Translations under genes and position numbers: made by a program
The notes under the pieces: model-generated
Database searches by the model: none
What the model saw: the letters and a program-made list of their open reading frames with translations, nothing else
What the model was told of the DNA's origin: nothing
Shown: positions 5,658-28,940 of the stretch, in pieces
Position numbering within the stretch: position 1 is the first letter of the stretch
How the letters are laid out: the number at the start of each line of letters is the position of its first letter
Assembly (NCBI GenBank): GCA_041494705.1
Contig: JBGQBI010000003.1
Location: 270,001 to 302,000, forward strand
Length of the DNA: 32,000 nucleotides
Reading direction: 5' to 3'
From: Candidatus Methanoperedens sp.
GTDB taxonomy: Archaea; Halobacteriota; Methanosarcinia; Methanosarcinales; Methanoperedenaceae

Positions 5658-7331
5658 TCAATCCTCATCAACAAACTTTGCGCTGGTATCTTCCCTGAGC
5701 ATACCTTTGATAACAACCGCGTATGCAGGTCTTGCCAAAAAGACACCTATGAACACACCGACTATGGTAATTTCTGCAAAACCCCTGAGGGCGCTTGAAT
5801 CCATGAAGAATATGAGAGGCAACATAGCTACAAGTACCGTGGCTGCCGCCGCAAAGATTATGGCAAACGCTTTCGAGATGCGGGATTTGTACACCTTGTC
5901 CGGCGGCATGGCGCCGCCTGCGAGTACTTCGTCTGTTATAATTATGAGATGGTCTACGCCAGTACCTATTACCGCAATGATTCCCGCAATAGTGGCCAGG
6001 TCAAGCTGGAGCCCGAAAAGAACTGCAAATCCCAGGATTATGATGATTTCGCTGAATGATGTTGAGAGCATCGGGATTATGATATTGGGCTGCTTATACC
6101 TGAGAGAAACTACAAAGGCTACCAATATCAGAGCGACCAATCCGGCGATTAAGACCTGCTCTTTAAATTTGGCTCCAAGAGGTGCTGATACTTCACCGGA
6201 ACCGGCCTCTAGCACCTGGACCGGCAATGCGCCTGCTCTCAAATGAAGCTGGAGCTCTTTTGCTTTCTCCTGTCCCGCGTCACCGGTGCCCGTAGTAGCT
6301 ACCATGTTTTTCACAGGAACACTCTGTATGTTCTTTGCCAGATTGGCAGCAAGCGGTGCATCAAATACAAGATTACCATCAAGATACATACTGAGGTAAT
6401 GCGCGGCTGGATTTGTCACCGCCCCATATTGTATCGCTGCGTCACGAAGCGCTTTAGCCCCGTCATCGGTGAGTTCAAAGGATACGCCCCAGTAACCCCC
6501 CTGCTCCGTCTGCGGGACTCCTACTCCTGTTATCTGGTCCCCGAAAAGCACATGTTCTGTCTCGTTACCTTTAGTCTGTATCCGTATCTCGAATTTTCCA
6601 GGTGTAAGCGCAAGCTTTCTCGCTTCTTCTATGGATACTCCGGGCAGGTCGATAAGTAAATAATTATCGCCTATTGGCGTTATCGTTATCTGCTTAACGG
6701 CAATGGGATTGAGTTTGTTTTCAAGCCTCTGTTTTGTCTCATCGCGGGTTTCTGTGGTTACACCCACCCGGAACGGCGGGATGACTTTTCCGCCAACGGG
6801 TTGTAAAATGGCGTTCAATGATTGTTCGGTTACGGCTTTTCTTATCTCGAATGTTGGAAAGTTGCCCGGTATCTGCTTGACATCAGCGCTCAGTTTGTCT
6901 TTCAGGTATGTTTGAATTAAAAAATCCTTGTTTGTTTGCAGTGTTACCTTGGTTCCCCCTGACGGGGCGACTGATAGTGTAGATGGGCCAAATCCCAATG
7001 AATCCATAGTTTTCTGGGTAACCTCTTTTGAAGTTGTGAAAGTGATAGAAGCTGCCGTGGCTTCGTCTATTTTAATAGAGGAATCATTCAGCAATTTTCC
7101 CAATTCTATCTGGGCAATTTTTCCTGGGTCGGCATCCACCTGCGCGATAGCTCCCTGGAGCTGCACCTGCAGCCATGAACCGCCGTCAAGATCAATACCG
7201 TACTTTAAGTTGTTCTGGATATGAAATTGACCATTAGAGTATGACACCGTGATAGCAGTAATCGAGCCCAGAATAACAGCAATGAGCAGCAGGACGCGCC
7301 AGTTCTTATAAAAAGGTTCTTCTTCGTTCAT
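5658..7331 (-). CDS. secD: Archaeal protein-export membrane protein SecD
   Basis: N-terminal TM, a large extracytoplasmic domain, then a C-terminal six-TM block (GTGVDHLIIITDE...). ATGA overlap with the upstream secF, the typical archaeal secF-secD order. Confidence 0.85.
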   Translation of the reverse strand: MNEEEPFYKNWRVLLLIAVILGSITAITVSYSNGQFHIQNNLKYGIDLDGGSWLQVQLQGAIAQVDADPGKIAQIELGKLLNDSSIKIDEATAASITFTTSKEVTQKTMDSLGFGPSTLSVAPSGGTKVTLQTNKDFLIQTYLKDKLSADVKQIPGNFPTFEIRKAVTEQSLNAILQPVGGKVIPPFRVGVTTETRDETKQRLENKLNPIAVKQITITPIGDNYLLIDLPGVSIEEARKLALTPGKFEIRIQTKGNETEHVLFGDQITGVGVPQTEQGGYWGVSFELTDDGAKALRDAAIQYGAVTNPAAHYLSMYLDGNLVFDAPLAANLAKNIQSVPVKNMVATTGTGDAGQEKAKELQLHLRAGALPVQVLEAGSGEVSAPLGAKFKEQVLIAGLVALILVAFVVSLRYKQPNIIIPMLSTSFSEIIIILGFAVLFGLQLDLATIAGIIAVIGTGVDHLIIITDEVLAGGAMPPDKVYKSRISKAFAIIFAAAATVLVAMLPLIFFMDSSALRGFAEITIVGVFIGVFLARPAYAVVIKGMLREDTSAKFVDED

Positions 7332-8269
7332 GATGTCTGCCTCTTCTTTTTTGGTTTTTCAATTACTTTTTCCATTTTCCGCGTACCTTTTTCTATATAC
7401 CACCTGAGGATACCAACGTTGGTCATCCAGGTGTTTATGATGTCCGCAATCAGGCCGAAAATGAGCACAACAGAAATGTCCCGGATTATATCAATACGCG
7501 TGAACGATATAATAAGACCGGATGAGACAAAAAACATGGCAATAAGAGCGGCGAGCGCTGTTAAGGTCATAGTTAACCCGGTTACCATTGCGTCCTTTAT
7601 CTTATCGTTTAATTCCCCTTTACGTTTGAGAAGCCGCGTAGTTAAAAGTATATCCGTGTCCACGGAATAACCAATAAGCATCAGAAGAGCCGCTACTGTT
7701 CCAAGAGACAGAAATATCCCGAATACATCAGTCATCGCAGCCGCAAACGTAATGTCGGCAAATGCAGATATAACTACGGCTATGGATGGAACAAATGTCT
7801 TGTAAATTATGAAAATCACGATTGCCATAAAAACGAACGAGATAACTATGGCGCGAACCGCCTGGCCCTGCAATGATTTACTGAACTGTTCTCCCATGTC
7901 ACTTATTTCCACAGTATCGGGATTCGTAGATTCAGATTTTACTTTTTTGATTAGCTCATCTTTTAAAGATGCGTCCATCGGGCTGAATTCCATTATTTTT
8001 CGGTCCCCAACACTGTATTGTCTTACCTCAACCCCGGGGTAATTCGCAAACTCCTCTTTCAATTGGTCCGGAGTTTTTAAACTATCAAAAATTATCGCCG
8101 TACCGCCCTTGAATTCCAAACCGAGTTCAACAGGCGCCCCTGTTTTGTAGGTTGTGTAAGCCAGTATGGAAAGCGATAACAAAAGCAGTATTACTGGAAA
8201 AATGAGCATCTGTTTAAAATTAAAGTTTTTAACATAGGCTTCTATTGCCTTATCATTGATCAATTTCAT
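7328..8269 (-). CDS. secF: Archaeal protein-export membrane protein SecF
   Basis: 313 aa, N-terminal TM plus periplasmic loop (GLEFKGGT), C-terminal TM bundle (GYSVDTDILLTTR). Translationally coupled to secD. Confidence 0.85.
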   Translation of the reverse strand: MKLINDKAIEAYVKNFNFKQMLIFPVILLLLSLSILAYTTYKTGAPVELGLEFKGGTAIIFDSLKTPDQLKEEFANYPGVEVRQYSVGDRKIMEFSPMDASLKDELIKKVKSESTNPDTVEISDMGEQFSKSLQGQAVRAIVISFVFMAIVIFIIYKTFVPSIAVVISAFADITFAAAMTDVFGIFLSLGTVAALLMLIGYSVDTDILLTTRLLKRKGELNDKIKDAMVTGLTMTLTALAALIAMFFVSSGLIISFTRIDIIRDISVVLIFGLIADIINTWMTNVGILRWYIEKGTRKMEKVIEKPKKKRQTS

Positions 8270-8351
8270 CGGGATTCTCCTTTCGACAGGTTAAGATTCG
8301 CTTAGATTATAACACAACATATTTACCTTTTGCTATTTGCATTGTTTTTCT

Positions 8352-8429
8352 CATAAAGGGGTTGCGCCCCTTTATGACGTCCCGAGTCACGCCTCGGGAG
8401 GGCGTGTTGGGGTATGCTTTGCATACCCC
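8352..8429. repeat. GC-rich cluster of three perfect hairpins, related to the element at 2950-3058
   Basis: 8352-8376: cataaagggg/cccctttatg (10 bp). 8380-8399: tcccgag/ctcggga. 8409-8429: ggggtatgc/gcatacccc. Contains the same 14-nt core gggttgcgcccctt. Confidence 0.6.
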
Positions 8430-8457
8430 TCGTTTGATAAACCTTTCTTAAAGTTAT

Positions 8458-9492
8458 TCATACCAGCACGTCTTCAAGTCCCGACTCTTTTACAATTGCA
8501 AGCGCCCTCTGGCATTCCTCTCTTGTAAGATTTCGGTTTATTTCAGGGTACTCGTACGCCCTGTAGTTAGGCGAATACTGGAACATGAGGTTAAACCTGA
8601 CTTTCGGTATATGCTCTTTCGTCCATTTTACTATCGGCACTGTGCAGCAATCGATGTGGTTCGGAAGAACAAGGTGCCTCAAGAGAATTTCACCGCTTTT
8701 GTAAGCCGACATGAAATTCCTTGTTACGGTTGACCAATAATCGGGCGCATTTGAATATTTCATTGCGCATTCGTCACTCCCATACCTGAAATCCCCGAGA
8801 TATACATCAACCACGCCCTCAAGCAAATTTGCGATTTCTCCTGAATAATACATGTTGGAATTCCAGACGACAGGAACATTAACCCGAAGCGCATTCAGGA
8901 TTTTGAGGATAGTATGGGTATGAGGCGTCGGCGTGACAAAATTAACGTTCCTTGACCCGTAAGCGCGCCGGAGGGTGATGATTCTTGCAAGTTCCTGAGG
9001 TAAAATGGGCATTCCACTTTCAGGCGCCTGTGAAATCTGCCAGTTCTGGCAATAGACGCAGGAAAAATTGCAGCCTGTGAAGAATATCGTATGCGACGGC
9101 ACAAGTTCAGGCTCCTCGCCGTGATGCAGGAACTCGGCTGAATAGCGCGAGACGGCATCCAGCCTGCAATAACCGATTTCTTTCTTTTTACGGTTTATCC
9201 CGCATCTTCGTTCGCAGAAATGGCAGCTTTGAATAATTTTATCAGCGATAGCAATTTTCAGGTCAAGGAGCGACGGGCTTGCACGGGGGGCGAGTTCATC
9301 GATAGATGCAATACTATCGAATATCTCACGAAAAGAGCGCATCGCTGTGTCGTGTATTTTCCAGAGTTCAGGAAGCGTGGAATCCTTATTGAAATCAACA
9401 CTCACCGATTGGGAAACCAGGAATTGCGATGGAAGCTTATCCTTCATCACATCAAAATATCCTGGAAGAAAAAGCGGGCTGCCGGAGATCAT
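8458..9492 (-). CDS. Radical SAM protein, PflX-like (pyruvate formate-lyase activase homologue family)
   Basis: CNFSCVYCQN is a CX3CX2C radical-SAM cluster motif. About 340 aa. The start could instead be the internal ATG at 9447 (MKDKLPSQ). Confidence 0.7.
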   Translation of the reverse strand: MISGSPLFLPGYFDVMKDKLPSQFLVSQSVSVDFNKDSTLPELWKIHDTAMRSFREIFDSIASIDELAPRASPSLLDLKIAIADKIIQSCHFCERRCGINRKKKEIGYCRLDAVSRYSAEFLHHGEEPELVPSHTIFFTGCNFSCVYCQNWQISQAPESGMPILPQELARIITLRRAYGSRNVNFVTPTPHTHTILKILNALRVNVPVVWNSNMYYSGEIANLLEGVVDVYLGDFRYGSDECAMKYSNAPDYWSTVTRNFMSAYKSGEILLRHLVLPNHIDCCTVPIVKWTKEHIPKVRFNLMFQYSPNYRAYEYPEINRNLTREECQRALAIVKESGLEDVLV

Positions 9493-13243: not shown

Positions 13244-14391
13244 CTTTGATGAACCCGTCTAAAAAGGATGAATCTAATGGGGTTCATCAAACCGAGAAAA
13301 GCAATAAGGAGATACGTGATTCTCTCTCAAAGACGACTCTAAAGAAACTCATCCAGGATTTCTATGAGCAATTCGAGAGCGAGACTATACCTCATATCGT
13401 CCTGCCTTCGCGCACCAAGAAGAATATCGAACTGAACGAGGACAGCGATGTGTGGGTTTACGGAGACAGCGAGAGCATGCGCAGCGCGAAAACCGTAAAA
13501 GGGGCAACGCAGCTCCTCAAGACATCGCATGTGGTGGAACTTTTGATGAAAGGTCATCTTGACCAGAACAAAAGCTCAACCCTTCGAGAACTGTATTATA
13601 TCAGTGAGAACTGGGATATCGCAAAATTCCACGAGCAGGCTGAAAGCGACCGCCTGATAGAAGACCTTGAGATAATAACAGGCTTGCAGCGCGAGGATTT
13701 CCATGTGCGCCCCGAGGAGAATGGCGCGACATTATACGGTCCTATCAAGATCAAGGAATTAACAAAGCGCGGCGACCGCACCATGCACTGCCAGGACGAG
13801 GTTGGAGAGGCTGGATACCAGATACCTTATAATGTGGAGACCATAAAGTTCGTGGAGCACGACGCGAAGTTCATTATCGCCATCGAGACCGGCGGTATGC
13901 AGGACAGGCTCATCGAGAACGGTTTTGACGAGAAATTCGATGCCATCCTTGTGCACCTGAAGGGACAGCCCGCGCGAAGCACGCGGCGCATCATCAAGCG
14001 CATGAACGAGGAACTGAAACTGCCAGTGGTGGTGTTCACTGACGGCGACCCGTGGAGCTTCCGCATATACGCAAGCGTTGCTTACGGCGCCATCAAGAGC
14101 GCGCATCTCTCAGAGTTCATGGCAACGCCTGCCGCGAAGTTCATCGGGGTGCAGTCAACAGATATCGTGGAGTATGAGCTTTCAACGGACAAGCTGAACG
14201 ACCAGGACATTAAGGCGCTTGAGAGCGAACTTACAGATCCGAGATTTGATACGCCCTACTGGAAAGACCAGATTAATCTTATGCTAAAGATTGGAAAGAA
14301 GGCAGAGCAGCAGGCTTTTGCGGGGAAGGGGCTGGATTATGTTACGGATAAGTATTTGCCGGAGAGGCTGACGGAGATGGGAGTGATTTGA
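13240..14391 (+). CDS. top6A: DNA topoisomerase VI subunit A (Spo11 homologue)
   Basis: STLRELYY (catalytic Tyr context) and Toprim IAIETGGM ... FTDGDPWS. Coupled to top6B. Confidence 0.92.
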
Positions 14392-14409
14392 GGTACGATA
14401 AAAATTTAG

Positions 14410-17400
14410 TTAAGCCCGAGTAACTAAAAATTGAATGTTTTTAATATTAATACCATGGTCTAGTAAAATAGGTTTAACCGACTCAAACTCTTCAATTAAT
14501 TTATCTTTGACCTCATTAAAAATTTTGTCAGCATCAGAATCACTTTTATTTAATAATACTTGAATTAAAATTGATTTTTCTTCAATGGATATAACAACTT
14601 CTTGAACTATCTCGATTTTTCTATATTCATCTCTTTGTATTTCGCTTATTAAATGATGATTCCGATGCTCTTCTCTTGGAAGTCTATTTTTATCAGTATC
14701 TAATGCATCCGCCAATCGAAGTAAAGCTGATATCAATTTACTTCTAATACTACTCGGTTTTTTATCTAACAATACTGCTTGAGTTTCCACAACATTATCT
14801 ATTTTTTCATTGCTACTATGATGTAAACATATTTGTGCAACTATCGCTTTTTCAGTATCGTTTAATAGCCCCATTTTCAAATAATTTTTTTCTAAAAAAG
14901 GAATTATTCTTCTGGCATGTTCTTTTCTTACATTTTTAACAACATCCAGATTATCATAATCTTCGCCTTCTTGTTTAAGCATTCCTAGATCATGACACCA
15001 AGAACATACAGCTAATAAAAAATATTCATATTCATTTAATCTTTTTTCACCTTTTTTTAACTCCCAGTTATCTAAAAGTTGATTCATTAAATTGAAAACA
15101 TTGTTTGAATGGGGAGTACCATGATTAGTAAAAAATCTAAAATATTTTGAATCTGAATGCACCCATGTTAATTGATTTTCACAGAACAGCTTAATTTTTT
15201 CCAATCTTTCTGTAAATTTAGTCTCTCGTAAATTATTTGTTAAATATTCTTTATTCTTTCCACTTTTTTCAACCATTTCTTTTATATGTTTTTCTTCGGC
15301 AACAATTTCAGCTATTTCTTCATAGATTTGTTCTTCTCTAAAAATCGATTCTTCTCCTTCTTTTGTAACTTTCTCGAAATGATCTCTGATTTTTTTGGAC
15401 ACAAACGGGCCAACTAATTTAGATAAAGCATCATGATCCAAATCCTTCAATGAATTGTATGTAAAACCAGCATTGAATAATTTCCTCGCGCTTTTCCGTC
15501 TAACCCCCTCAATTTTTATATATTCCAATAATTCCTCTTTGATTCCTCCAACAACTCTATCACAGTAGATAAGTATTCTATCTGTTATCCCTTTAGAAAC
15601 ACCGTTCAATATAGCAATTTTTACAAATGCGTCTCCTAACCATTCCAACATCTCACCAAGTTCATAAAAATCTGCATCCCTAAGCTCAGGATATTTGCCA
15701 ATTATTTCTTCCAATGGTTTTTCTTCCATCCAATTACAAAGTAAAAATGCTGCTAGAGATTTTCTAGAATATGTTTGTTTTTCAACATCGTCTCCATTAT
15801 CCGGCATCCTAGATAGCAATAAATCCTTAGCTTTAAACCGCGATGCTAACTCTAGCCCCTCAAAATCATTATCGTAGGGTCTATAATTATTAACTTCAGG
15901 AGACAAAAGTAATAATTGAAATATTGGCCAAGGATTCTCTAAATCTTTCTCCGTGTACAAGCTCGACATAATTTTTTGAGAACCCCTTAAAAATAGCAGG
16001 CCGGTTTCGCAATCTATGCAGGAATCTGAAACAGCTTTACCAAACTTAGTAGGAATATAATAAGATCCTGATTTTTTAATGAAACCATTATCTTCCAGAT
16101 ACGATAAATCTTTAAAAATCTCTTTTCTTAGATCGAATTCTTCAAATTCATATCTATAAATAGTAAACCAAAGTGTCGTTTTAAGATATTCAAATATTTC
16201 TTCTATAGGAATTATTCTATTGGAGGCAATTAATCCGTTCAAATGTTTCTGGCGTGTTCTCGCAACTCTTAATTGAGAGAGGACTCTCTCTGGATTTTTT
16301 TTGATATATTTACCATAAAGTTGTCCATCTACTGATTGGTCTTCAATGAGAATAGCTTCTCCAAATTTATGATACCCTGGCCTTCCCGCTCTTCCCATCA
16401 TATTTAAGACACTATTTATTGGATGGGGCTCAAAATCATGTCCATTCCATTTTAAATAATCTGAAATAATTACAACATTTGCTGGAAGATTTACACCCTG
16501 TTCCAGAGTTGGAGTTGATACAAGCACCTTTAAATTTCTATTTTCGAAATTTTTCTCGATAATATCTCTTTGAATTAATTGAAGACCTGCATGATGAAAA
16601 CTTACACCTAAACGCACACAAGCAATCAAATTTTTAGAAAATTTAGTTTTTTCTTCGATAGAATCATCAATTAATTGTGATATTTCTTTGCATACTACTT
16701 CATCAATACTATATCCCCCACGTTTTATATCTAATGCTAATGCAACTGCCAGACTCTCCGCATGATCCCTTGCGTTAGTGAAAATTATACATTGTTTTTC
16801 TTGATTAATAAAATATTTTACTAAATCTATAGTATTTCCATATCGAATCGATTTCCATCTATCCATACTACCCTTATTATGTGTATAGACATTTTTTCTG
16901 ATTGGAATTTTTATTTTCTCCTTTTCGATTTGTAGTATTCCATAATTGCTTAATATCCCGGCATGTAATGGAATAATACGGTTTTTATTAAAAACAATGT
17001 CATCTGCTAACCAAGTTTTGATTTCTTCTGGATTACCAATTACTGCAGACAATGCTATTCTTTGAGCCTTTTTAAATTTTCTTATTATTTCAGATACCAC
17101 TATCTCTAAGGTTAAACCTCTTGATTTATCATCAACCATCTGAATTTCATCTATAACAAATAATGAGACATCATAGAGCCATTCTTCATTGTGACGAATT
17201 AAAGAATCTACCTTCTCAATTGTAGCAATAATTACGTCCTTCCTACCAATATTAGTATACTCACATTTCGCATAATCCCCAGTAGTTATTCCGACTGAGA
17301 TTCCTAATGGAGCTAATATTCTGTTAAACTGCTCATATTTCTGTCTAGCCAAAGCCCTCAATGGGACAATATAGATAGCTTTTCCTCTCTTTTTTAAAAC

Positions 17401-17601
17401 AGTATCAATAACCGATAACAACGCAGGGAATGTTTTCCCAGAACCAGTTGGAAGACCTATAAAAACATTTTTTCTATCAACCAGACATTTTTGGATGCAC
17501 TCCCATTGATCATCCCATATCTCTGAATAGTTATTTTCTCTCAAAACTTCGATAACTTTTTCATCAAAAAATGGACTTAAATCATCTATCGACCTAGGCA
17601 T
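14410..17601 (-). CDS. Ski2/Hel308-type SF2 helicase fused to a C-terminal HD-superfamily domain (1063 aa from ATG 17601)
   Basis: Helicase motifs GLPTGSGKT, VIDEIQ, SAV, STPTLEQGVNLPA, MMGRAGRPG. An HhH-like IEGVRRKSARKLFNAGF follows. After an acidic linker come the HD motifs HGTPHSNNV, WCHDLGM, CLHHSS and LRLADALD. The 50 codons of the track ORF above 17601 run into GC-rich repeat DNA and are unlikely to be coding. A TATA-like box lies 25-32 nt upstream of ATG 17601. Confidence 0.85.
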   Translation of the reverse strand: MPRSIDDLSPFFDEKVIEVLRENNYSEIWDDQWECIQKCLVDRKNVFIGLPTGSGKTFPALLSVIDTVLKKRGKAIYIVPLRALARQKYEQFNRILAPLGISVGITTGDYAKCEYTNIGRKDVIIATIEKVDSLIRHNEEWLYDVSLFVIDEIQMVDDKSRGLTLEIVVSEIIRKFKKAQRIALSAVIGNPEEIKTWLADDIVFNKNRIIPLHAGILSNYGILQIEKEKIKIPIRKNVYTHNKGSMDRWKSIRYGNTIDLVKYFINQEKQCIIFTNARDHAESLAVALALDIKRGGYSIDEVVCKEISQLIDDSIEEKTKFSKNLIACVRLGVSFHHAGLQLIQRDIIEKNFENRNLKVLVSTPTLEQGVNLPANVVIISDYLKWNGHDFEPHPINSVLNMMGRAGRPGYHKFGEAILIEDQSVDGQLYGKYIKKNPERVLSQLRVARTRQKHLNGLIASNRIIPIEEIFEYLKTTLWFTIYRYEFEEFDLRKEIFKDLSYLEDNGFIKKSGSYYIPTKFGKAVSDSCIDCETGLLFLRGSQKIMSSLYTEKDLENPWPIFQLLLLSPEVNNYRPYDNDFEGLELASRFKAKDLLLSRMPDNGDDVEKQTYSRKSLAAFLLCNWMEEKPLEEIIGKYPELRDADFYELGEMLEWLGDAFVKIAILNGVSKGITDRILIYCDRVVGGIKEELLEYIKIEGVRRKSARKLFNAGFTYNSLKDLDHDALSKLVGPFVSKKIRDHFEKVTKEGEESIFREEQIYEEIAEIVAEEKHIKEMVEKSGKNKEYLTNNLRETKFTERLEKIKLFCENQLTWVHSDSKYFRFFTNHGTPHSNNVFNLMNQLLDNWELKKGEKRLNEYEYFLLAVCSWCHDLGMLKQEGEDYDNLDVVKNVRKEHARRIIPFLEKNYLKMGLLNDTEKAIVAQICLHHSSNEKIDNVVETQAVLLDKKPSSIRSKLISALLRLADALDTDKNRLPREEHRNHHLISEIQRDEYRKIEIVQEVVISIEEKSILIQVLLNKSDSDADKIFNEVKDKLIEEFESVKPILLDHGINIKNIQFLVTRA

Positions 17602-17625
17602 TTTAATAACGATATGCTGAGATAC

Positions 17626-17633
17626 TATATAAA
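17626..17633 (-). promoter_or_regulatory. TATA-box-like element (minus strand tttatata) upstream of the helicase-HD gene
   Basis: AT-rich tttatata about 25-32 nt upstream of ATG 17601. This would give a leaderless or near-leaderless transcript. Confidence 0.4.
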
Positions 17634-17707
17634 TTAGATAGTAAAAATAATAATACAAATACGACTGCCCTCCTACGTCAATCCCATGTCCCATCCCCTC
17701 GCTGAAA

Positions 17708-17727
17708 CCCGGCGTAGGTCGAGGAGA
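17708..17727. repeat. GC-rich short dispersed repeat, copy A (cccggcgtaggtcgaggaga)
   Basis: Matches the gcgggtcgaggaga core of copy C (18981-19005) and partly copy B. Confidence 0.5.
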
Positions 17728-17852
17728 TTGCGGCATCCCGCACCAATCCACAAAATTCAGGCTACAAACCTCAAAGCCAAGCGCCCGAACAGTCTAAAAT
17801 AATTCAGCCATCCGCATCCTCAGACTCTGGCGCCGCCGCAAAATGCTATAAT

Positions 17853-17893
17853 TCACCCCAAAATCTTCGCGCCCTCTGCGTCCTTTGGGGTGA
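17853..17893. repeat. Perfect 10-bp inverted repeat tcaccccaaa / tttggggtga with a 21-nt GC-rich loop
   Basis: Read directly: 17853-17862 is the reverse complement of 17884-17893. Confidence 0.5.
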
Positions 17894-17960
17894 TTCATCG
17901 ACCAAAACCGCAAAGCGCGCAAAAGAACGCAAAGCACAGCTTGCTAAAATTTTCAATTCG

Positions 17961-17990
17961 AGTTCGTACAAGTTCGTACGAGTTCGTTGC
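17961..17990. repeat. Three tandem 10-bp units (agttcgtaca agttcgtacg agttcgttgc), flanked by ttgctaaa(a)tt on both sides
   Basis: Read directly. Unit length is about one helical turn. A partial unit (caattcg) precedes the array. ttgctaaaatt at 17941 and ttgctaaatt at 17987 bracket it. Confidence 0.7.
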
Positions 17991-18045
17991 TAAATTAATA
18001 GATGATGCGCGCCGCCGCAAACAGACACCGGCGCATCCCCCGCAT

Positions 18046-18068
18046 CCGATGCCCCGGCGCGGGTCGAA
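18046..18068. repeat. GC-rich short dispersed repeat, copy B (ccgatgccccggcgcgggtcgaa)
   Basis: Nearly identical to 18979-19000 (ccgatgcctggcgcgggtcgag). The two differ at cc versus t and at the last base. Confidence 0.6.
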
Positions 18069-18177
18069 TAAACCCAAACAAGCTTCCCTAACACGTCCTC
18101 AGGCTGCCTCTCTTTAAAACCGCGCGCCTCCCCTGCCCGCCGGCGCCGTCCCAAAAATGCAGGCTCGAAAAGTCTAT

Positions 18178-18685
18178 TCACGGATTCCAGACTTTAATCC
18201 ATTCCACTCTTTCAAAATCGCTATCGTTAGTAGCAATGTCGAATATTCTATATCTTTTCATAACTGCCAGATGCAGCGAATCTTTCGGATGAAGCAGGTA
18301 TTCTGTTCCATAATCGTATATCTTAAAAGCATCATCGCCTGTAATTTCAAGAAGCTTCAGGGTTTCGAGAGATTTGACATATCCAATAAAATCCCTTAAC
18401 GATTGAATAACATTTCTGTGCGAAATTCCTGTCCTTTTCAATCATTTCTCTTACTTTTCGAGGGCTTTTGGAATCAAGAATCTCAAGCCCTTTGTTAATA
18501 ATTAGGACGTATGCAGCCTCATCAATAACAGCCGGTGAGGTGAACGCCTCTACCTCATTATTTTCAACTTTCTCTAAAAAAGCAGTTGCAGATTCGGTAT
18601 ACTTTGATTCTGCCGCATGATAGACAAATACGTTTGCATCAATAAATATGGGCCTTTCTCTAAAGGCGGATAGCTCATTTCTCAT
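18178..18685 (-). pseudogene. vapC: PIN-domain VapC toxin, split by a 1-nt frameshift near 18420-18441
   Basis: Two overlapping ORFs (18347-18685 and 18178-18441) together give one PIN domain: N-terminal IFIDANVF, then TSPAVIDEA, and C-terminal DSLHLA ... TNDSDFERV. The frames switch within ...gaaaaggacagg... Confidence 0.6.
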
Positions 18686-18899
18686 ATTTTTCTAAGATGC
18701 TATCAGAATATATATCCTTCATTTCTTTTAAGGAAAGTCTCAATTTCCCGCAATAGCCCTTCATTCTTCTTGTGATATTTTTTTCCTTGATGATAAGTTC
18801 TTTTTCTCCGATTTTGACTTCGACTCTTCCGGATATCTTTGCATCGTGAAGAGTCCCGTAAGGAATAACAAGCCCTTCTTTAACGCCATCAACTTGCAT
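18675..18899 (-). CDS. vapB: Putative antitoxin (small AbrB/SpoVT-like) paired with vapC
   Basis: 74 aa. It overlaps the vapC start by 11 nt, the standard antitoxin-upstream TA arrangement. The fold assignment is tentative. Confidence 0.5.
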   Translation of the reverse strand: MQVDGVKEGLVIPYGTLHDAKISGRVEVKIGEKELIIKEKNITRRMKGYCGKLRLSLKEMKDIYSDSILEKYEK

Positions 18900-18960: not shown

Positions 18961-19005
18961 CAACCCTCCCCCCTGCCCCCGATGCCTGGCGCGGGTCGAG
19001 GAGAG
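18961..19005. repeat. GC-rich short dispersed repeat, copy C (...cctcccccctgcccccgatgcctggcgcgggtcgaggagag)
   Basis: Combines the C-rich cctcccctgccc motif (also at 18128-18140) with the gatgcc-ggcgcgggtcga core (copies A and B). Confidence 0.6.
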
Positions 19006-19054
19006 CATGGAGAACAATATTAATATGAGCAGACTAATTTAAACAGTGAGATTT

Positions 19055-19261
19055 ATGGAATCTTCGATAAACCTTGAGGCGCGGCTTCTAGCTCTGGATA
19101 AAGAACTCCATGCTATTTTAAACATGGTCAGAGAGCAGCGAGCAACCGAGAAAAAAACAGGTGTGGTGAAAGAAACCCTTGGCGCGTGGGGTTATGATGT
19201 GGATAGCAAGAAATTTGTGGATAATCTGCGCAAGTCCAAGAGATTAGATTGGGTAAAATGA
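19055..19261 (+). CDS. Orphan antitoxin-like small protein (archaeal VapB-like)
   Basis: About 68 aa from ATG 19055, with a C-terminal ...GAWGYDVDSKKFVDNLRKSKRLDW pattern. Its stop overlaps (ATGA) the start of a PIN-like ORF. Confidence 0.45.
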   Translation: MESSINLEARLLALDKELHAILNMVREQRATEKKTGVVKETLGAWGYDVDSKKFVDNLRKSKRLDWVK

Positions 19262-19410
19262 AAGTATTTATCGACACATCAATATCCACCCTCACCCAAA
19301 CCCCACAGCTCGCCGCTCCTGGCACCGTCCTGCAAATACAGAATCGAAAATTCTATTCACGGAGCCAGGTGCAGCGAATCTTTCGGGTGAAGAGGATACG
19401 GCTTTGGTAA
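19258..19410 (+). pseudogene. Truncated PIN-domain toxin remnant. Only MKVFIDTSI is retained; the rest is GC-rich repeat plus the antisense of a vapC fragment.
   Basis: ATG 19258 overlaps the antitoxin stop. MKVFIDTSI is a typical PIN N-terminus with the conserved Asp. From about 19287 the sequence switches to repeat DNA, with stop at 19408-19410. Confidence 0.5.
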
Positions 19411-26969: not shown

Positions 26970-27812
26970 ATGATAATGATTACAGCGATTGTAACGATGA
27001 TGGTTACTGCCATCATTTCTACAGTGGCGCGTTATGTTACATGGCAGATATCAGTTGTAGGTGACCCCTTCTATAAGTTCATAATCTGGCATATACTATT
27101 ATTTTCAATTGCACTTGCTATATTTCTGGACAGACGGCAAGGGTTCAAAAAAACAATCGGAATTGCGGGGTATATTGCACAAAAATATAATAAGACAAAT
27201 AGAGAGGGCAAGATAAATGCAACAATGAATGCATACCATGAGCATGCCCAAAAACCCAAGCTCCAAAAAGTATTGCTGCCAATCGCGATAACGCTATTCA
27301 TAGCATATATTCTTTCAGCTCATTTGTTATTTTTTGCAATCGTCACTTCAGGTTCGATGGAGCCAACCTTTAAAAAAGGCGACCTCGTATTTATGCAGGA
27401 TATTTTAATACAGCCAAAAGTCGGGGATATAATAATATTCCCTGACCCCCAAAAAAATGTGGTTTCGAATAAACCGGTTACGGTAACGCACAGGATTATT
27501 GAGATAAATGGGGATACAATAAGAACAAAAGGTGATAATAATCCTAATACAGATAGCTGGAAAATCAATAAAAAAGATGTAATCGGTAAAGCCTTCATTA
27601 TAGGTTCAAATCCCGCAGTCTTAAAAGATTTGGGTAGATATTTCTTACTGGATTTCAGGACAGACCAATACACGGAGGAATACCTTGCTATAGCAAAGAC
27701 TATCCAGAACATGAGAAGCATGGGGCTGATGATATTCTTCGGATGTCTTGTAATGTATTTGTTCCTGTCAATAAGAGATTCACGTCCTTCAAGACATTTT
27801 AAAAGCAGGTGA
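26970..27812 (+). CDS. Signal peptidase I, archaeal/Sec11 (S26B) type, with an unusual ~85-aa hydrophobic N-terminal extension
   Basis: SGSMEPTF (Ser nucleophile), VTHRI (His), TKGDNNPNTD (conserved GDNN box), C-terminal TM. A conventional-length enzyme would start at ATG 27225. Confidence 0.8.
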   Translation: MIMITAIVTMMVTAIISTVARYVTWQISVVGDPFYKFIIWHILLFSIALAIFLDRRQGFKKTIGIAGYIAQKYNKTNREGKINATMNAYHEHAQKPKLQKVLLPIAITLFIAYILSAHLLFFAIVTSGSMEPTFKKGDLVFMQDILIQPKVGDIIIFPDPQKNVVSNKPVTVTHRIIEINGDTIRTKGDNNPNTDSWKINKKDVIGKAFIIGSNPAVLKDLGRYFLLDFRTDQYTEEYLAIAKTIQNMRSMGLMIFFGCLVMYLFLSIRDSRPSRHFKSR

Positions 27813-27947
27813 AAAAGATAAATCGATTTTTTTTTCATAAAGTATATAAACTATTCCAATAATTAATTTTAAAAACGATTTTAATCTTGAAGGTCTTGTA
27901 ATATATAAATTAATAGAAGGCATACAAATTAATAGAAGGGGTCGGAT

Positions 27948-28940
27948 TTGGCGAATTTAGAAAAAATAATTGAACAATTAATAAGTAAACCCGAGTCATA
28001 TACTATCCAGAGGGACTCGCTTGATACATATATCAAGGAACATCATATGTGTCTCAATCCTTTCGCCGACAAGATTATTGATGATAAGATGTTCATCAAT
28101 AAAGATGAAATTGTCTGCAACAGGATAATGCGGGCTGCCAGGCACAACCAGTCAAGCCTGATGATATTAATGGGCCCTACAGGTTCAGGGAAGAGCGAAA
28201 ATGCCGACTTTATCGTAAGAAACCTGCCTCCCGAGTTTATTTTCTGGTATAACCAGATATATGGCCAGAGCTCGATACAGCTTGCTACATCGATAATCGG
28301 CGACCTTGACCCCAACTATCTGGCCCAATTATCCACAGCAGACAGGGAAATGATTCTTGACATATATGATGATGTCTTAAAGGCGCTTGTTAAAAATAAC
28401 AAGAAATTATTCTGCATATTCGACCAGGGGGAGCATTTCTCAAAAGATGCTTTTGAACTTATCACCAATTCCACCAATCCTTATTATGCAGCAAACAGGG
28501 CGTTTACGGGTTTGATCCTCGCAGTTCCACGCTTTGAAAAACATATTGAAGAATGGACTGAAAGTCTTGATACAATGTTAAGAAGGGCTCTTATACGCGA
28601 ATATACCAGGCCATTTACAGTGTCCCAGCGACTTGAATATATAATACGCGCCCTTGTTTCCAGTAAGAAAAAGAGCTATCATGAATTAATGAAAAAACGC
28701 GATTTTGACCCTTTCGATGAAGATGCCATTTTATACTTGATTGAAAAGAGTGAAGGACATCCAAGCACTCTTAACAGTCTATGCTATATCTCACTGGAAC
28801 TTGTGTCTGCAATTTCACCAGACGCAGTAATAACAGAATCTATTGTTCAGGAAGCCTGGACTAAATTCCCGAATAAAACAATCCATCACGACGCTATAAA
28901 CTGGTATAAAGAGAAAGGTCTATACCAGAAGCAAGACTAA
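27948..28940 (+). CDS. P-loop ATPase, ExeA/AAA_22-like
   Basis: Walker A GPTGSGKS, Walker-B-like LFCIFDQGEH, and a C-terminal EGHPSTLNSLC resembling the G-x-PR-x-IN-x-LC signature of ExeA-like ATPases. TTG start. Confidence 0.6.
   Translation: MANLEKIIEQLISKPESYTIQRDSLDTYIKEHHMCLNPFADKIIDDKMFINKDEIVCNRIMRAARHNQSSLMILMGPTGSGKSENADFIVRNLPPEFIFWYNQIYGQSSIQLATSIIGDLDPNYLAQLSTADREMILDIYDDVLKALVKNNKKLFCIFDQGEHFSKDAFELITNSTNPYYAANRAFTGLILAVPRFEKHIEEWTESLDTMLRRALIREYTRPFTVSQRLEYIIRALVSSKKKSYHELMKKRDFDPFDEDAILYLIEKSEGHPSTLNSLCYISLELVSAISPDAVITESIVQEAWTKFPNKTIHHDAINWYKEKGLYQKQD

Follow-up and report, generated by a model that had tools for sequence, protein, structure and literature searches.

A Hel308-type helicase joined to an HD-CE domain in Candidatus Methanoperedens, a candidate stand-alone immune protein

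Introduction

Why does a Candidatus Methanoperedens sp. genome carry, next to its top6A gene, a strongly AT-rich gene for a Hel308-like helicase that continues into an HD domain? The gene lies in a stretch of 32,000 nucleotides (assembly GCA_041494705.1, contig JBGQBI010000003.1, positions 270,001 to 302,000 of the forward strand), which was analysed as a whole and is called the window here. We propose that its product is probably a stand-alone immune (conflict) protein, in which a complete Hel308-type 3'-to-5' DNA helicase would provide the sensor and motor and the C-terminal HD-CE domain would be the effector. The case for a defence role comes from architecture, relatives and context: it is favoured because sister proteins carry a CBASS-type PNP or a PycC-like cyclase in place of the effector, because HD-CE domains elsewhere sit on STAND, NACHT and caspase proteins, and because defence genes lie near other copies of the gene. 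A first description of the locus, made from the letters alone (the sequence-only reading), had already pointed to a helicase-HD fusion of possible defensive use, and its claims are taken up where the results bear on them.

Domain architecture of the fusion protein

The open reading frame (ORF) at 14410-17601 on the minus strand yields a protein of 1063 amino acids (aa), a Hel308-like helicase with a C-terminal HD-CE domain, and can be divided as follows.

14410..17601, minus strand: complete gene of the helicase-HD-CE fusion, 1063 codons plus stop, supported by the ORF and its translation and by full-length homologues of 41-75% identity
16282..17601, minus strand: RecA1 and RecA2 motor core, ~aa 1-440, with Pfam DEAD at 30-192 and Helicase_C at 326-409, and with Walker A and motifs II, III, V and VI
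15337..16281, minus strand: Hel308 accessory domains with approximate borders, namely winged helix ~aa 441-530, ratchet domain 4 ~531-690 and helix-hairpin-helix (HhH) domain 5 ~691-755
15157..15336, minus strand: acidic/Lys-rich linker, ~aa 756-815, with a long helix at 756-790 in the AlphaFold2 (AF2) model that joins HhH domain 5 to the HD domain
14413..15156, minus strand: HD-CE phosphohydrolase domain, ~aa 816-1063, with an all-alpha HD core and a C-terminal alpha/beta subdomain

The motor core contains GLPTGSGKT at 49-57 (Walker A, GSGKT, at 53-57), DEIQ at 151-154, SAV (motif III) at 185-187, STPTLEQGVNLPA at 362-374 and MMGRAGRPG at 401-409 (motif VI, GRAGR, at 403-407), and every motif quoted in the sequence-only reading was located in the translation of 14410-17601. 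Residues K56, T57, D151, E152, R404 and R407 are invariant in 14/14 aligned members of the clade described below, and the Hel308 motor is apparently catalytically competent. Canonical Hel308 enzymes have a DExH box as motif II. In the fusion protein motif II (window 17140-17151) is DEIQ, a DExQ box as in Suv3, and the same holds for 13/14 clade members; P0018, the most divergent HD-bearing member, has DEIH.

Hel308/Hjm proteins headed the ranking when the protein was compared by phmmer with the sequences of solved structures (2zj2, 328 bits, query 12-722 on residues 8-674; 2p6r, 297 bits; 2va8, 281 bits), followed by ASCC3/Brr2 (213-241 bits), the PolQ helicase (113 bits) and HamB (8vx9, 104 bits, core only). 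All three Hel308/Hjm alignments end at query 722-739, in line with the earlier statement that canonical Hel308 ends near the HhH domain. Pfam detects the archaeal helicase domain 4 (Helicase_dom4_arc) at 560-668 and, weakly, HHH_5 at 693-731, where IEGVRRKSARKLFNAGF occupies 697-713. The full-length AF2 model (predicted local distance difference test, pLDDT, 87.7; predicted template modelling score, pTM, 0.82) was superposed by Foldseek on 2zj2, 2zj8, 2va8, 2p6r and 9b15 with template modelling (TM) scores of 0.88-0.93, normalised to the target, and a root-mean-square deviation of 3-4 Å over ~740 columns. As modelled, the helicase part has the complete five-domain Hel308/Hjm architecture.

The HD-CE domain and its candidate substrate

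Pfam HD-CE (PF24391) matches residues 821-1013 with 87.3 bits against a cut-off of 27, covering model positions 1-231 of 263. The HD motifs are NHGTPHS at 826-832, WCHDLGM at 868-874, CLHHSS at 925-930 and LRLADALD at 961-968, and the seven ligand-type residues H827, H831, H870, D871, H928, D965 and D968 are invariant in 11/11 HD-bearing homologues. Modelled alone by AF2, the region reaches a pLDDT of 89 and a pTM of 0.90. The C-terminal HD domain with its ligands, as first described, is therefore borne out by the predicted fold, by the family match and by the homologues, none of which has lost the ligands. The domain is apparently a competent phosphohydrolase.

HD-CE is a large family: an exhaustive profile search, clustered at 50%, gave 8034 representatives. 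It is mostly N-terminal, in proteins of 400-1200 aa, and its partners elsewhere are nSTAND3/5, ATPase_2, NACHT with HEAT, TPR, CHAT, caspase, HEPN and EAD7 domains; a helicase partner was found in 0/60 sampled representatives. The nSTAND and EAD families were defined for conflict systems that depend on nucleoside triphosphates (NTPs) (Kaur et al. 2020, PMC7159879).

Which substrate would such a domain attack? With the HD domain as query, Foldseek returned only HD-superfamily folds, among which Ppx/GppA HD-like proteins, PDE4 and HD-GYP were best; SAMHD1 structures appeared at ranks 29-50 with weak values (probability 0.15-0.5, TM ~0.25). A search of PDB sequences with the HD region gave no match beyond PDE6 at E 0.04. 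With SAMHD1/dGTPase-type deoxynucleotide hydrolases the domain has the HD-superfamily fold in common, but the fold matches are weak and there is no similarity at the sequence level. Membership of the domain in either the SAMHD1 or the Cas3-HD group is unsupported by profile or fold searches.

Cas3 nevertheless provides an alternative that has to be weighed. It combines a 3'-to-5' helicase of superfamily 2 (SF2) and an HD domain in one polypeptide, with the HD domain at the N-terminus and the helicase from another SF2 clade. By the same design, a 3'-to-5' SF2 motor and an HD-superfamily domain in one chain, the fusion protein could reel in and shred DNA: its HD domain would be a metal-dependent nuclease of single-stranded DNA that sits after domain 5 and cuts the strand threaded by the helicase, degrading foreign DNA directly. 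The HhH domain of Hel308 contacts the exiting strand. In the full-length model (pTM 0.82) a seemingly rigid helix connects the HD domain straight to the HhH domain, and when the HD region is compared with PADLOC, a Cas3 HD model is the single match, although it is not significant (14.5 bits, E 0.007). The effector of Hachiman, too, is a DNase (PMC12278908). No Cas3 HD structure, however, is found among the top 50 Foldseek matches of the domain, the NCBIfam Cas3 model TIGR02621 reaches 16 bits against a cut-off of 400, and the window has neither cas genes nor a CRISPR array. Moreover, the modules that replace the HD domain on the same chassis, a PNP nucleosidase and a nucleotidyl cyclase, are not nucleases, and in a published list of alternative effectors this kind of domain stands, beside caspase and PNPase, as 'the nucleotide phosphodiesterase HD domain' (PMC8195603). 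We consider Cas3-like shredding unlikely, at perhaps one chance in four in our judgement.

We favour nucleotide depletion or signal hydrolysis over Cas3-like strand shredding, and give it close to an even chance, because the swapped modules are nucleotide-directed and the HD fold is closest to HD domains of phosphodiesterase or phosphohydrolase type.

A discrete clade with exchanged effector modules

Is the protein simply the Hel308 of its host? The NCBIfam equivalog models for Hel308 align with it over their full length but stay below their cut-offs (NF002654, 468 vs 887; NF001308, 390 vs 1216; NF040935, 370 vs 1200; NF002251, 321 vs 891). Sequence and clade-profile searches of 5.8 billion proteins placed it in a clade of 23 protein clusters, separated by a score gap from 993 to 521 bits from the best canonical Hel308 (~32% identity). 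In a scan of species-representative genomes with the clade alignment, canonical Hel308 proteins from Marine Group II and Thermoplasmata dominated the matches listed, among which Methanolobus profundi was the only clade member.

An HD-CE match is present in 15/23 clusters, and 5/23 are helicase-only fragments. Other members end differently. In two clusters, P0021 and the Methanolobus profundi cluster P0022, there is a PNP_UDP_1 domain that matches the PADLOC model of the CBASS 'PN-superfamily' effector at 1e-18; in cluster P0023 a nucleotidyl cyclase replaces the HD domain and matches the Pycsar PycC model at 3e-10. These alternative modules are homologous to validated defence parts, and the sister variants thus connect the clade to CBASS PNP effectors and Pycsar cyclases. 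The linker is conserved even in the PNP variants, and in the clade alignment the effector variants cease to be homologous at about residue 790-800. On this alignment, the fusion point is a site of module exchange.

Distribution and evolution

With top6A as anchor, 80 related metagenomic loci were retrieved. The fusion gene lies downstream of top6A in 1/80 of them (its contig is also L006) and is absent from the site in 79/80. Methanoperedens contigs whose Top6A is 93-98% identical can be aligned with the window at the nucleotide level only as far as 14389-14405, where the top6A stop codon lies. Beyond top6A, the five Methanoperedens contigs that have 10 kb downstream each carry different genes (CDC48, AAA_14/DUF4143, NosD, GH16/GH18 and an AT-rich 405-aa ORF), and none has XPD within these 10 kb. 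Because homology ends there and different genes follow in each genome, the top6A stop is best taken as a synteny breakpoint and the fusion gene as accessory. A 'defence hotspot' downstream of top6A was considered and rejected, since the genes found at this breakpoint in other genomes are ordinary ones.

One other Methanoperedens strain (locus L005) is syntenic, with Top6A/B 95% identical and the helicase-HD protein 73% identical. Non-synonymous and synonymous divergence (dN and dS, Nei-Gojobori estimates) was calculated between the window and L005. The fusion gene has a dS of 0.71, and the flanking top6 genes have 0.55 and 0.77. Since these values match, allele replacement was rejected as an explanation of the low helicase identity between the strains, and the synteny together with a dS like that of the flanking top6 genes places the fusion gene in the common ancestor of the two strains. 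Its dN/dS is 0.24, 5-6 times higher than the 0.04 of the adjacent top6A/B; by segment, the RecA core has 0.15, the accessory domains 0.25, the linker 0.59 (the fastest) and HD-CE 0.24. The gene is thus under purifying selection yet evolves faster than its neighbours.

Fusion proteins of Methanothrix and Methanoperedens are ~70% identical, which equals the identity within the genus. Since cross-family identity is as high as within-genus identity, the comparison indicates horizontal transfer between families. The sequence-only reading had seen here an effector-fused, Hel308-like protein acquired horizontally, with the logic of Cas3. The fusion, the patchy spread and the ~70% cross-family identity agree with it; the likeness to Cas3 holds for the logic only and does not extend to similarity with the Cas3 HD domain.

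The same data bear on a role in DNA repair. The gene could encode an accessory paralogue for repair or replication restart, strain-specific and of housekeeping type, whose HD domain processes ends or blocked termini (3'-phosphate, 2',3'-cyclic phosphate) at stalled forks. The full Hel308 architecture with all its motifs, the place of the gene between top6BA and XPD in both the window and L005, and a dN/dS below 1, which speaks for a maintained function, would all suit such a paralogue. The adjacency to top6 and XPD is nonetheless confined to these two strains, and elsewhere the gene is found with CfbC/NifH-like operons, integrases, insertion sequence (IS) elements and defence genes. An exchange of the HD domain for a CBASS-type PNP or a PycC-like cyclase would make no sense for end processing, the other partners of HD-CE are STAND, caspase and CHAT proteins, and repair genes are not typically so often disrupted, so extremely AT-biased or so rare (23 clusters among 5.8 billion proteins). 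We therefore hold the repair paralogue to be improbable.

Compared with Hel308/Hjm (2zj2, 2p6r, 2va8), the fusion protein shares the five domains, aligns end to end (281-328 bits, TM 0.88-0.93) and has intact motifs. It differs by an identity of ~30%, by scores below every NCBIfam Hel308 cut-off, by DEIQ instead of DExH, and by an extra ~300 aa of linker and HD-CE, and its gene is rare, AT-rich, patchy, fast-evolving and often disrupted. Judged by scores, distribution, composition and rate of evolution, it appears to form a discrete paralogue clade and not the housekeeping Hel308, because it falls below the equivalog cut-offs, belongs to a clade of 23 clusters, occupies patchy sites, has disrupted copies and shows a raised dN/dS. 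Nor does the locus look like that of a syntenic core gene of normal composition, with one occurrence in 80 loci, unrelated contexts elsewhere and an abnormal base composition.

Base composition and origin

The fusion gene has a GC content of 0.314 and a GC content at third codon positions (GC3) of 0.217, compared with 0.504 and 0.643 for top6A and 0.457 and 0.503 for XPD. The sequence-only reading had called the gene AT-richer than its neighbours, and this extends to all 16 other window genes measured, whose GC3 is 0.38-0.64. Genes of the fusion clade have a GC3 of 0.19-0.28 in four different hosts of ~0.41-0.43 GC, and across all hosts their composition is abnormal with a single exception. 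Both in the window and in L005 (1705-4884) the gene keeps a GC3 of 0.19-0.22 in spite of a dS of ~0.7, in genomes with a GC3 of ~0.45-0.65. The AT bias has therefore been maintained since the strains split and is not ameliorating. Expression control, silencing and mutational bias are candidate causes.

Methanoperedens is known for AT-rich extrachromosomal elements, and the gene might have come from a plasmid- or Borg-like source and be stranded in the chromosome, serving the element as a helicase for replication or anti-defence, or as a toxin of the addiction type. A GC content of 0.31, far below that of the host and persisting in two strains, fits this idea, as do the integrases, resolvases and IS elements next to several copies and the relative P0018 on a uniformly AT-rich contig (GC 0.29). 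Close relatives are, however, absent from IMG/VR viral contigs (best 31% identity) and PLSDB plasmids (best 29%), Borg sequences not having been searched. In the window only this one gene is AT-rich, and there is no insertion signature in the form of tRNA, flanking direct repeats, Rfam RNA or integrase. The gene has also co-diverged with its chromosomal flanks under purifying selection. We regard a gene serving such an element as very improbable; as defence genes commonly ride on mobile elements, the idea overlaps with an immune role and does not exclude it.

Genomic neighbourhoods

The copies of the gene outside the top6 context were examined for their neighbours.

L175: Methanothrix, ~70% identical copy cut by a DDE-transposase IS; CfbC/NifH-like operon and PIN/AF2212 pair
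L176: Methanothrix, three fragments; CfbC/NifH-like operon as in L175 and HepT/MNT pair
L003: intact; resolvase, GmrSD/SspE-like enzyme (220 bits), integrase, transposases and AriA/PtuA/GajA-like ATPase
L008: intact, 41% identical; HerA (262 bits), CARF protein and ThsA-like SIR2
L009: intact cyclase variant P0023 at 6363-9457; type IIG restriction-modification enzyme (824 bits)
L177: split in two; phage-type integrase
L178: interrupted by IS21; cyclase and PycTM pair

Known defence genes thus lie near non-syntenic copies, L003, L008 and L009 among them, as would be looked for around a defence gene. At least five copies are IS-interrupted or fragmented, and no partner gene recurs across the examined loci.

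Several of these contigs have further features. L008 is a uniformly AT-rich contig of 14 kb (GC 0.29) that could be an extrachromosomal element or come from an AT-rich archaeon; it is crowded with defence genes, encoding besides HerA and the CARF protein a DpdA-like/DUF6884 protein, SIR2 joined to an ORC/Cdc6-like domain, and a DUF3427 protein. The L009 contig has a GC content of 0.585 and its cyclase variant a host-like composition. No cyclic-nucleotide-binding effector was recognisable near P0023 in L009, where neither Pfam nor PADLOC has a match for the neighbouring proteins of 603 and 315 aa. In L178, positions 691-2737 encode a nucleotidyl cyclase of 267 aa together with a PycTM-domain protein, a Pycsar-like pair that lies directly upstream of the interrupted helicase-HD gene.

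In the window itself, top6A converges with the fusion gene, and the 18 nt between the stop codons (top6A end at 14391, fusion ORF at 14410) agree with the spacing first given. The start ATG at 17601 is kept in the alignment of the orthologous loci L005, L006 and L007. A longer ORF from a GTG at 17751 was rejected because the upstream stretch has indels in this alignment and is non-coding, while the ATG and a TATA-like box are conserved; a conserved small upstream ORF was rejected on the same indels.

17625..17635, minus strand: TATA-like box AATTTATATAG, ~25-35 nt upstream of the ATG, an invariant block aligned with L005, L006 and L007
18181..18899, minus strand: degraded toxin-antitoxin locus, with PIN/VapC in two ORFs of overlapping frames (N-terminal half 18350-18685, C-terminal half 18181-18441, Pfam PIN) and a 74-aa ORF upstream at 18678-18899, the usual antitoxin position

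The position of the putative TATA-like box would be consistent with a leaderless or near-leaderless archaeal transcript. Directly upstream of the gene lies a GC-rich non-coding stretch (~17700-18150) in which TTGCGGCGGCGC recurs at ~17830 and 18015; it has no Rfam match, and L005 retains part of it, as far as 17846. Three copies of a GC-rich 20-mer (CCYGGCGYRGGTCGARKAGA-like) stand at 17708-17727, 18053-18072 and 18985-19004.

The toxin-antitoxin debris noticed from the letters is recognisable as a PIN/VapC gene split in two ORFs and a duplicated remnant at 19321-19392. The repeats at 18142-18294 and 19321-19392 share 43 nt at 81% and 29 nt at 93% identity, ~1.1-1.2 kb apart; the second copy stands just beyond a 71-aa ORF (19046-19261) and seems to be what is left of another toxin-antitoxin cassette related to the first. 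The decayed PIN/VapC locus has no PADLOC match and is not conserved in the syntenic L005, and it is probably context and not part of the system. Two other patches of lower GC may be additional accessory segments: 997-2325, a 442-aa ORF without Pfam match (GC 0.38), and 26970-28940, with an S26 signal-peptidase-like protein and an AAA_22 ATPase (GC 0.37-0.40).

Comparison with known defence systems

Among the models of PADLOC, those of HamB from Hachiman score best on the fusion protein (157 bits). In Hachiman, the Ski2/Hel308-like helicase HamB senses DNA damage, as a form of genome-integrity sensing, and unleashes a nuclease; its N-terminal helical bundle (NAH) binds HamA, and its authors noted a functional similarity between HamB and Hel308 (PMC12278908). 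A Ski2/Hel308-type DNA helicase coupled to a destructive effector is therefore common to both. The HamB match is nevertheless limited to the RecA core (residues 41-419, starting at model positions 150-290), the fusion protein has no NAH bundle, its DEAD domain beginning at residue 30, and HamB scores 104 bits against 328 for Hjm and is not in the top 50 fold matches of the full-length model. Its effector is covalent, C-terminal and an HD phosphohydrolase, in contrast to a PD-(D/E)xK-type nuclease, and no HamA/DUF1837 gene was found near the fusion gene or in the homologue loci. The genes next to the fusion gene are top6A, the split PIN gene, small ORFs and a TRAM gene, and none of them matches a PADLOC model.

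STAND/NLR-like HD-CE proteins (nSTAND3/5, NACHT, CHAT/caspase, EAD7) share the effector family PF24391 with its ligands, placed as a terminal module on an NTP-driven sensor and interchangeable with PNPase-type effectors. In the fusion protein, by contrast, a Hel308 helicase takes the place of the STAND ATPase, domains of STAND, TPR or HEAT type are absent, and HD-CE is C-terminal where it is usually N-terminal. The sequence-only reading knew of no described system with this architecture, and we likewise found no description of a Hel308-HD-CE protein in the searchable open-access literature.

Proposed function

The DNA structures preferred by Hel308 enzymes are 3' tails, forks and replication intermediates that are branched or damaged, and domain 5 of these enzymes is autoinhibitory. 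In the immune protein that we propose, the Hel308 module would load on such structures, which would be abundant during virus or plasmid replication or under attack on host DNA. ATP-driven engagement may then shift the autoinhibitory HhH domain 5 together with the long linker helix, and this shift would release or activate the HD-CE phosphohydrolase. HD-CE would destroy an essential phosphate-ester substrate, most likely a nucleotide (depletion of NTPs, deoxynucleotides or a nucleotide signal) and less likely nucleic acid, so that the invader could no longer replicate, probably at some expense to the host itself. The gene would have been acquired horizontally by the ancestor of the two Methanoperedens strains and then inherited with its flanks.

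Several points weigh against an immune protein of this kind. The trigger is extrapolated from the biochemistry of canonical Hel308. The Foldseek E-values for the HD domain are weak, the best being 6e-3, and HD-CE has no model in PADLOC v2 and no characterised member that we found in the literature. Apart from the decayed PIN locus, the fusion gene is surrounded in the window by genes of housekeeping type (SecDF, radical-SAM enzymes, top6BA, XPD, DUF356 and formylmethanofuran-dehydrogenase-like genes), and the two flanking DNA-metabolism genes could hint at a repair role. The context of the Methanolobus profundi locus is not obviously defensive, and the neighbourhood evidence as a whole is a handful of loci without statistical control.

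Our preferred reading remains the sensor-effector protein. Beyond it, the clade may be an undescribed family of archaeal origin in which Hel308 was co-opted as a sensor of genome integrity or foreign DNA that drives interchangeable nucleotide-directed effectors (HD-CE, PNP nucleosidase, PycC-like cyclase), an independent, fused counterpart of Hachiman; for this broader claim we see the balance as even.

Implications

If this reading is true, the Hel308 repair helicase, which is archaeal and metazoan, would have been recruited in complete form for immunity, where the authors of the Hachiman work suggested only functional similarity. It would also mean that a DNA helicase can take over from a STAND ATPase in driving effector modules of the STAND/NLR-like kind, and the large HD-CE family would gain a first sensor context other than STAND NTPases. 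With 23 clusters the clade is small, which would limit its ecological impact; its value would lie in mechanism and evolution. As a single polypeptide built on known helicase biochemistry, the protein would offer a tractable entry to the substrate of HD-CE. Finally, Methanosarcinales/ANME-2d archaea, in which few defence systems have been tested, would carry compact systems of their own.

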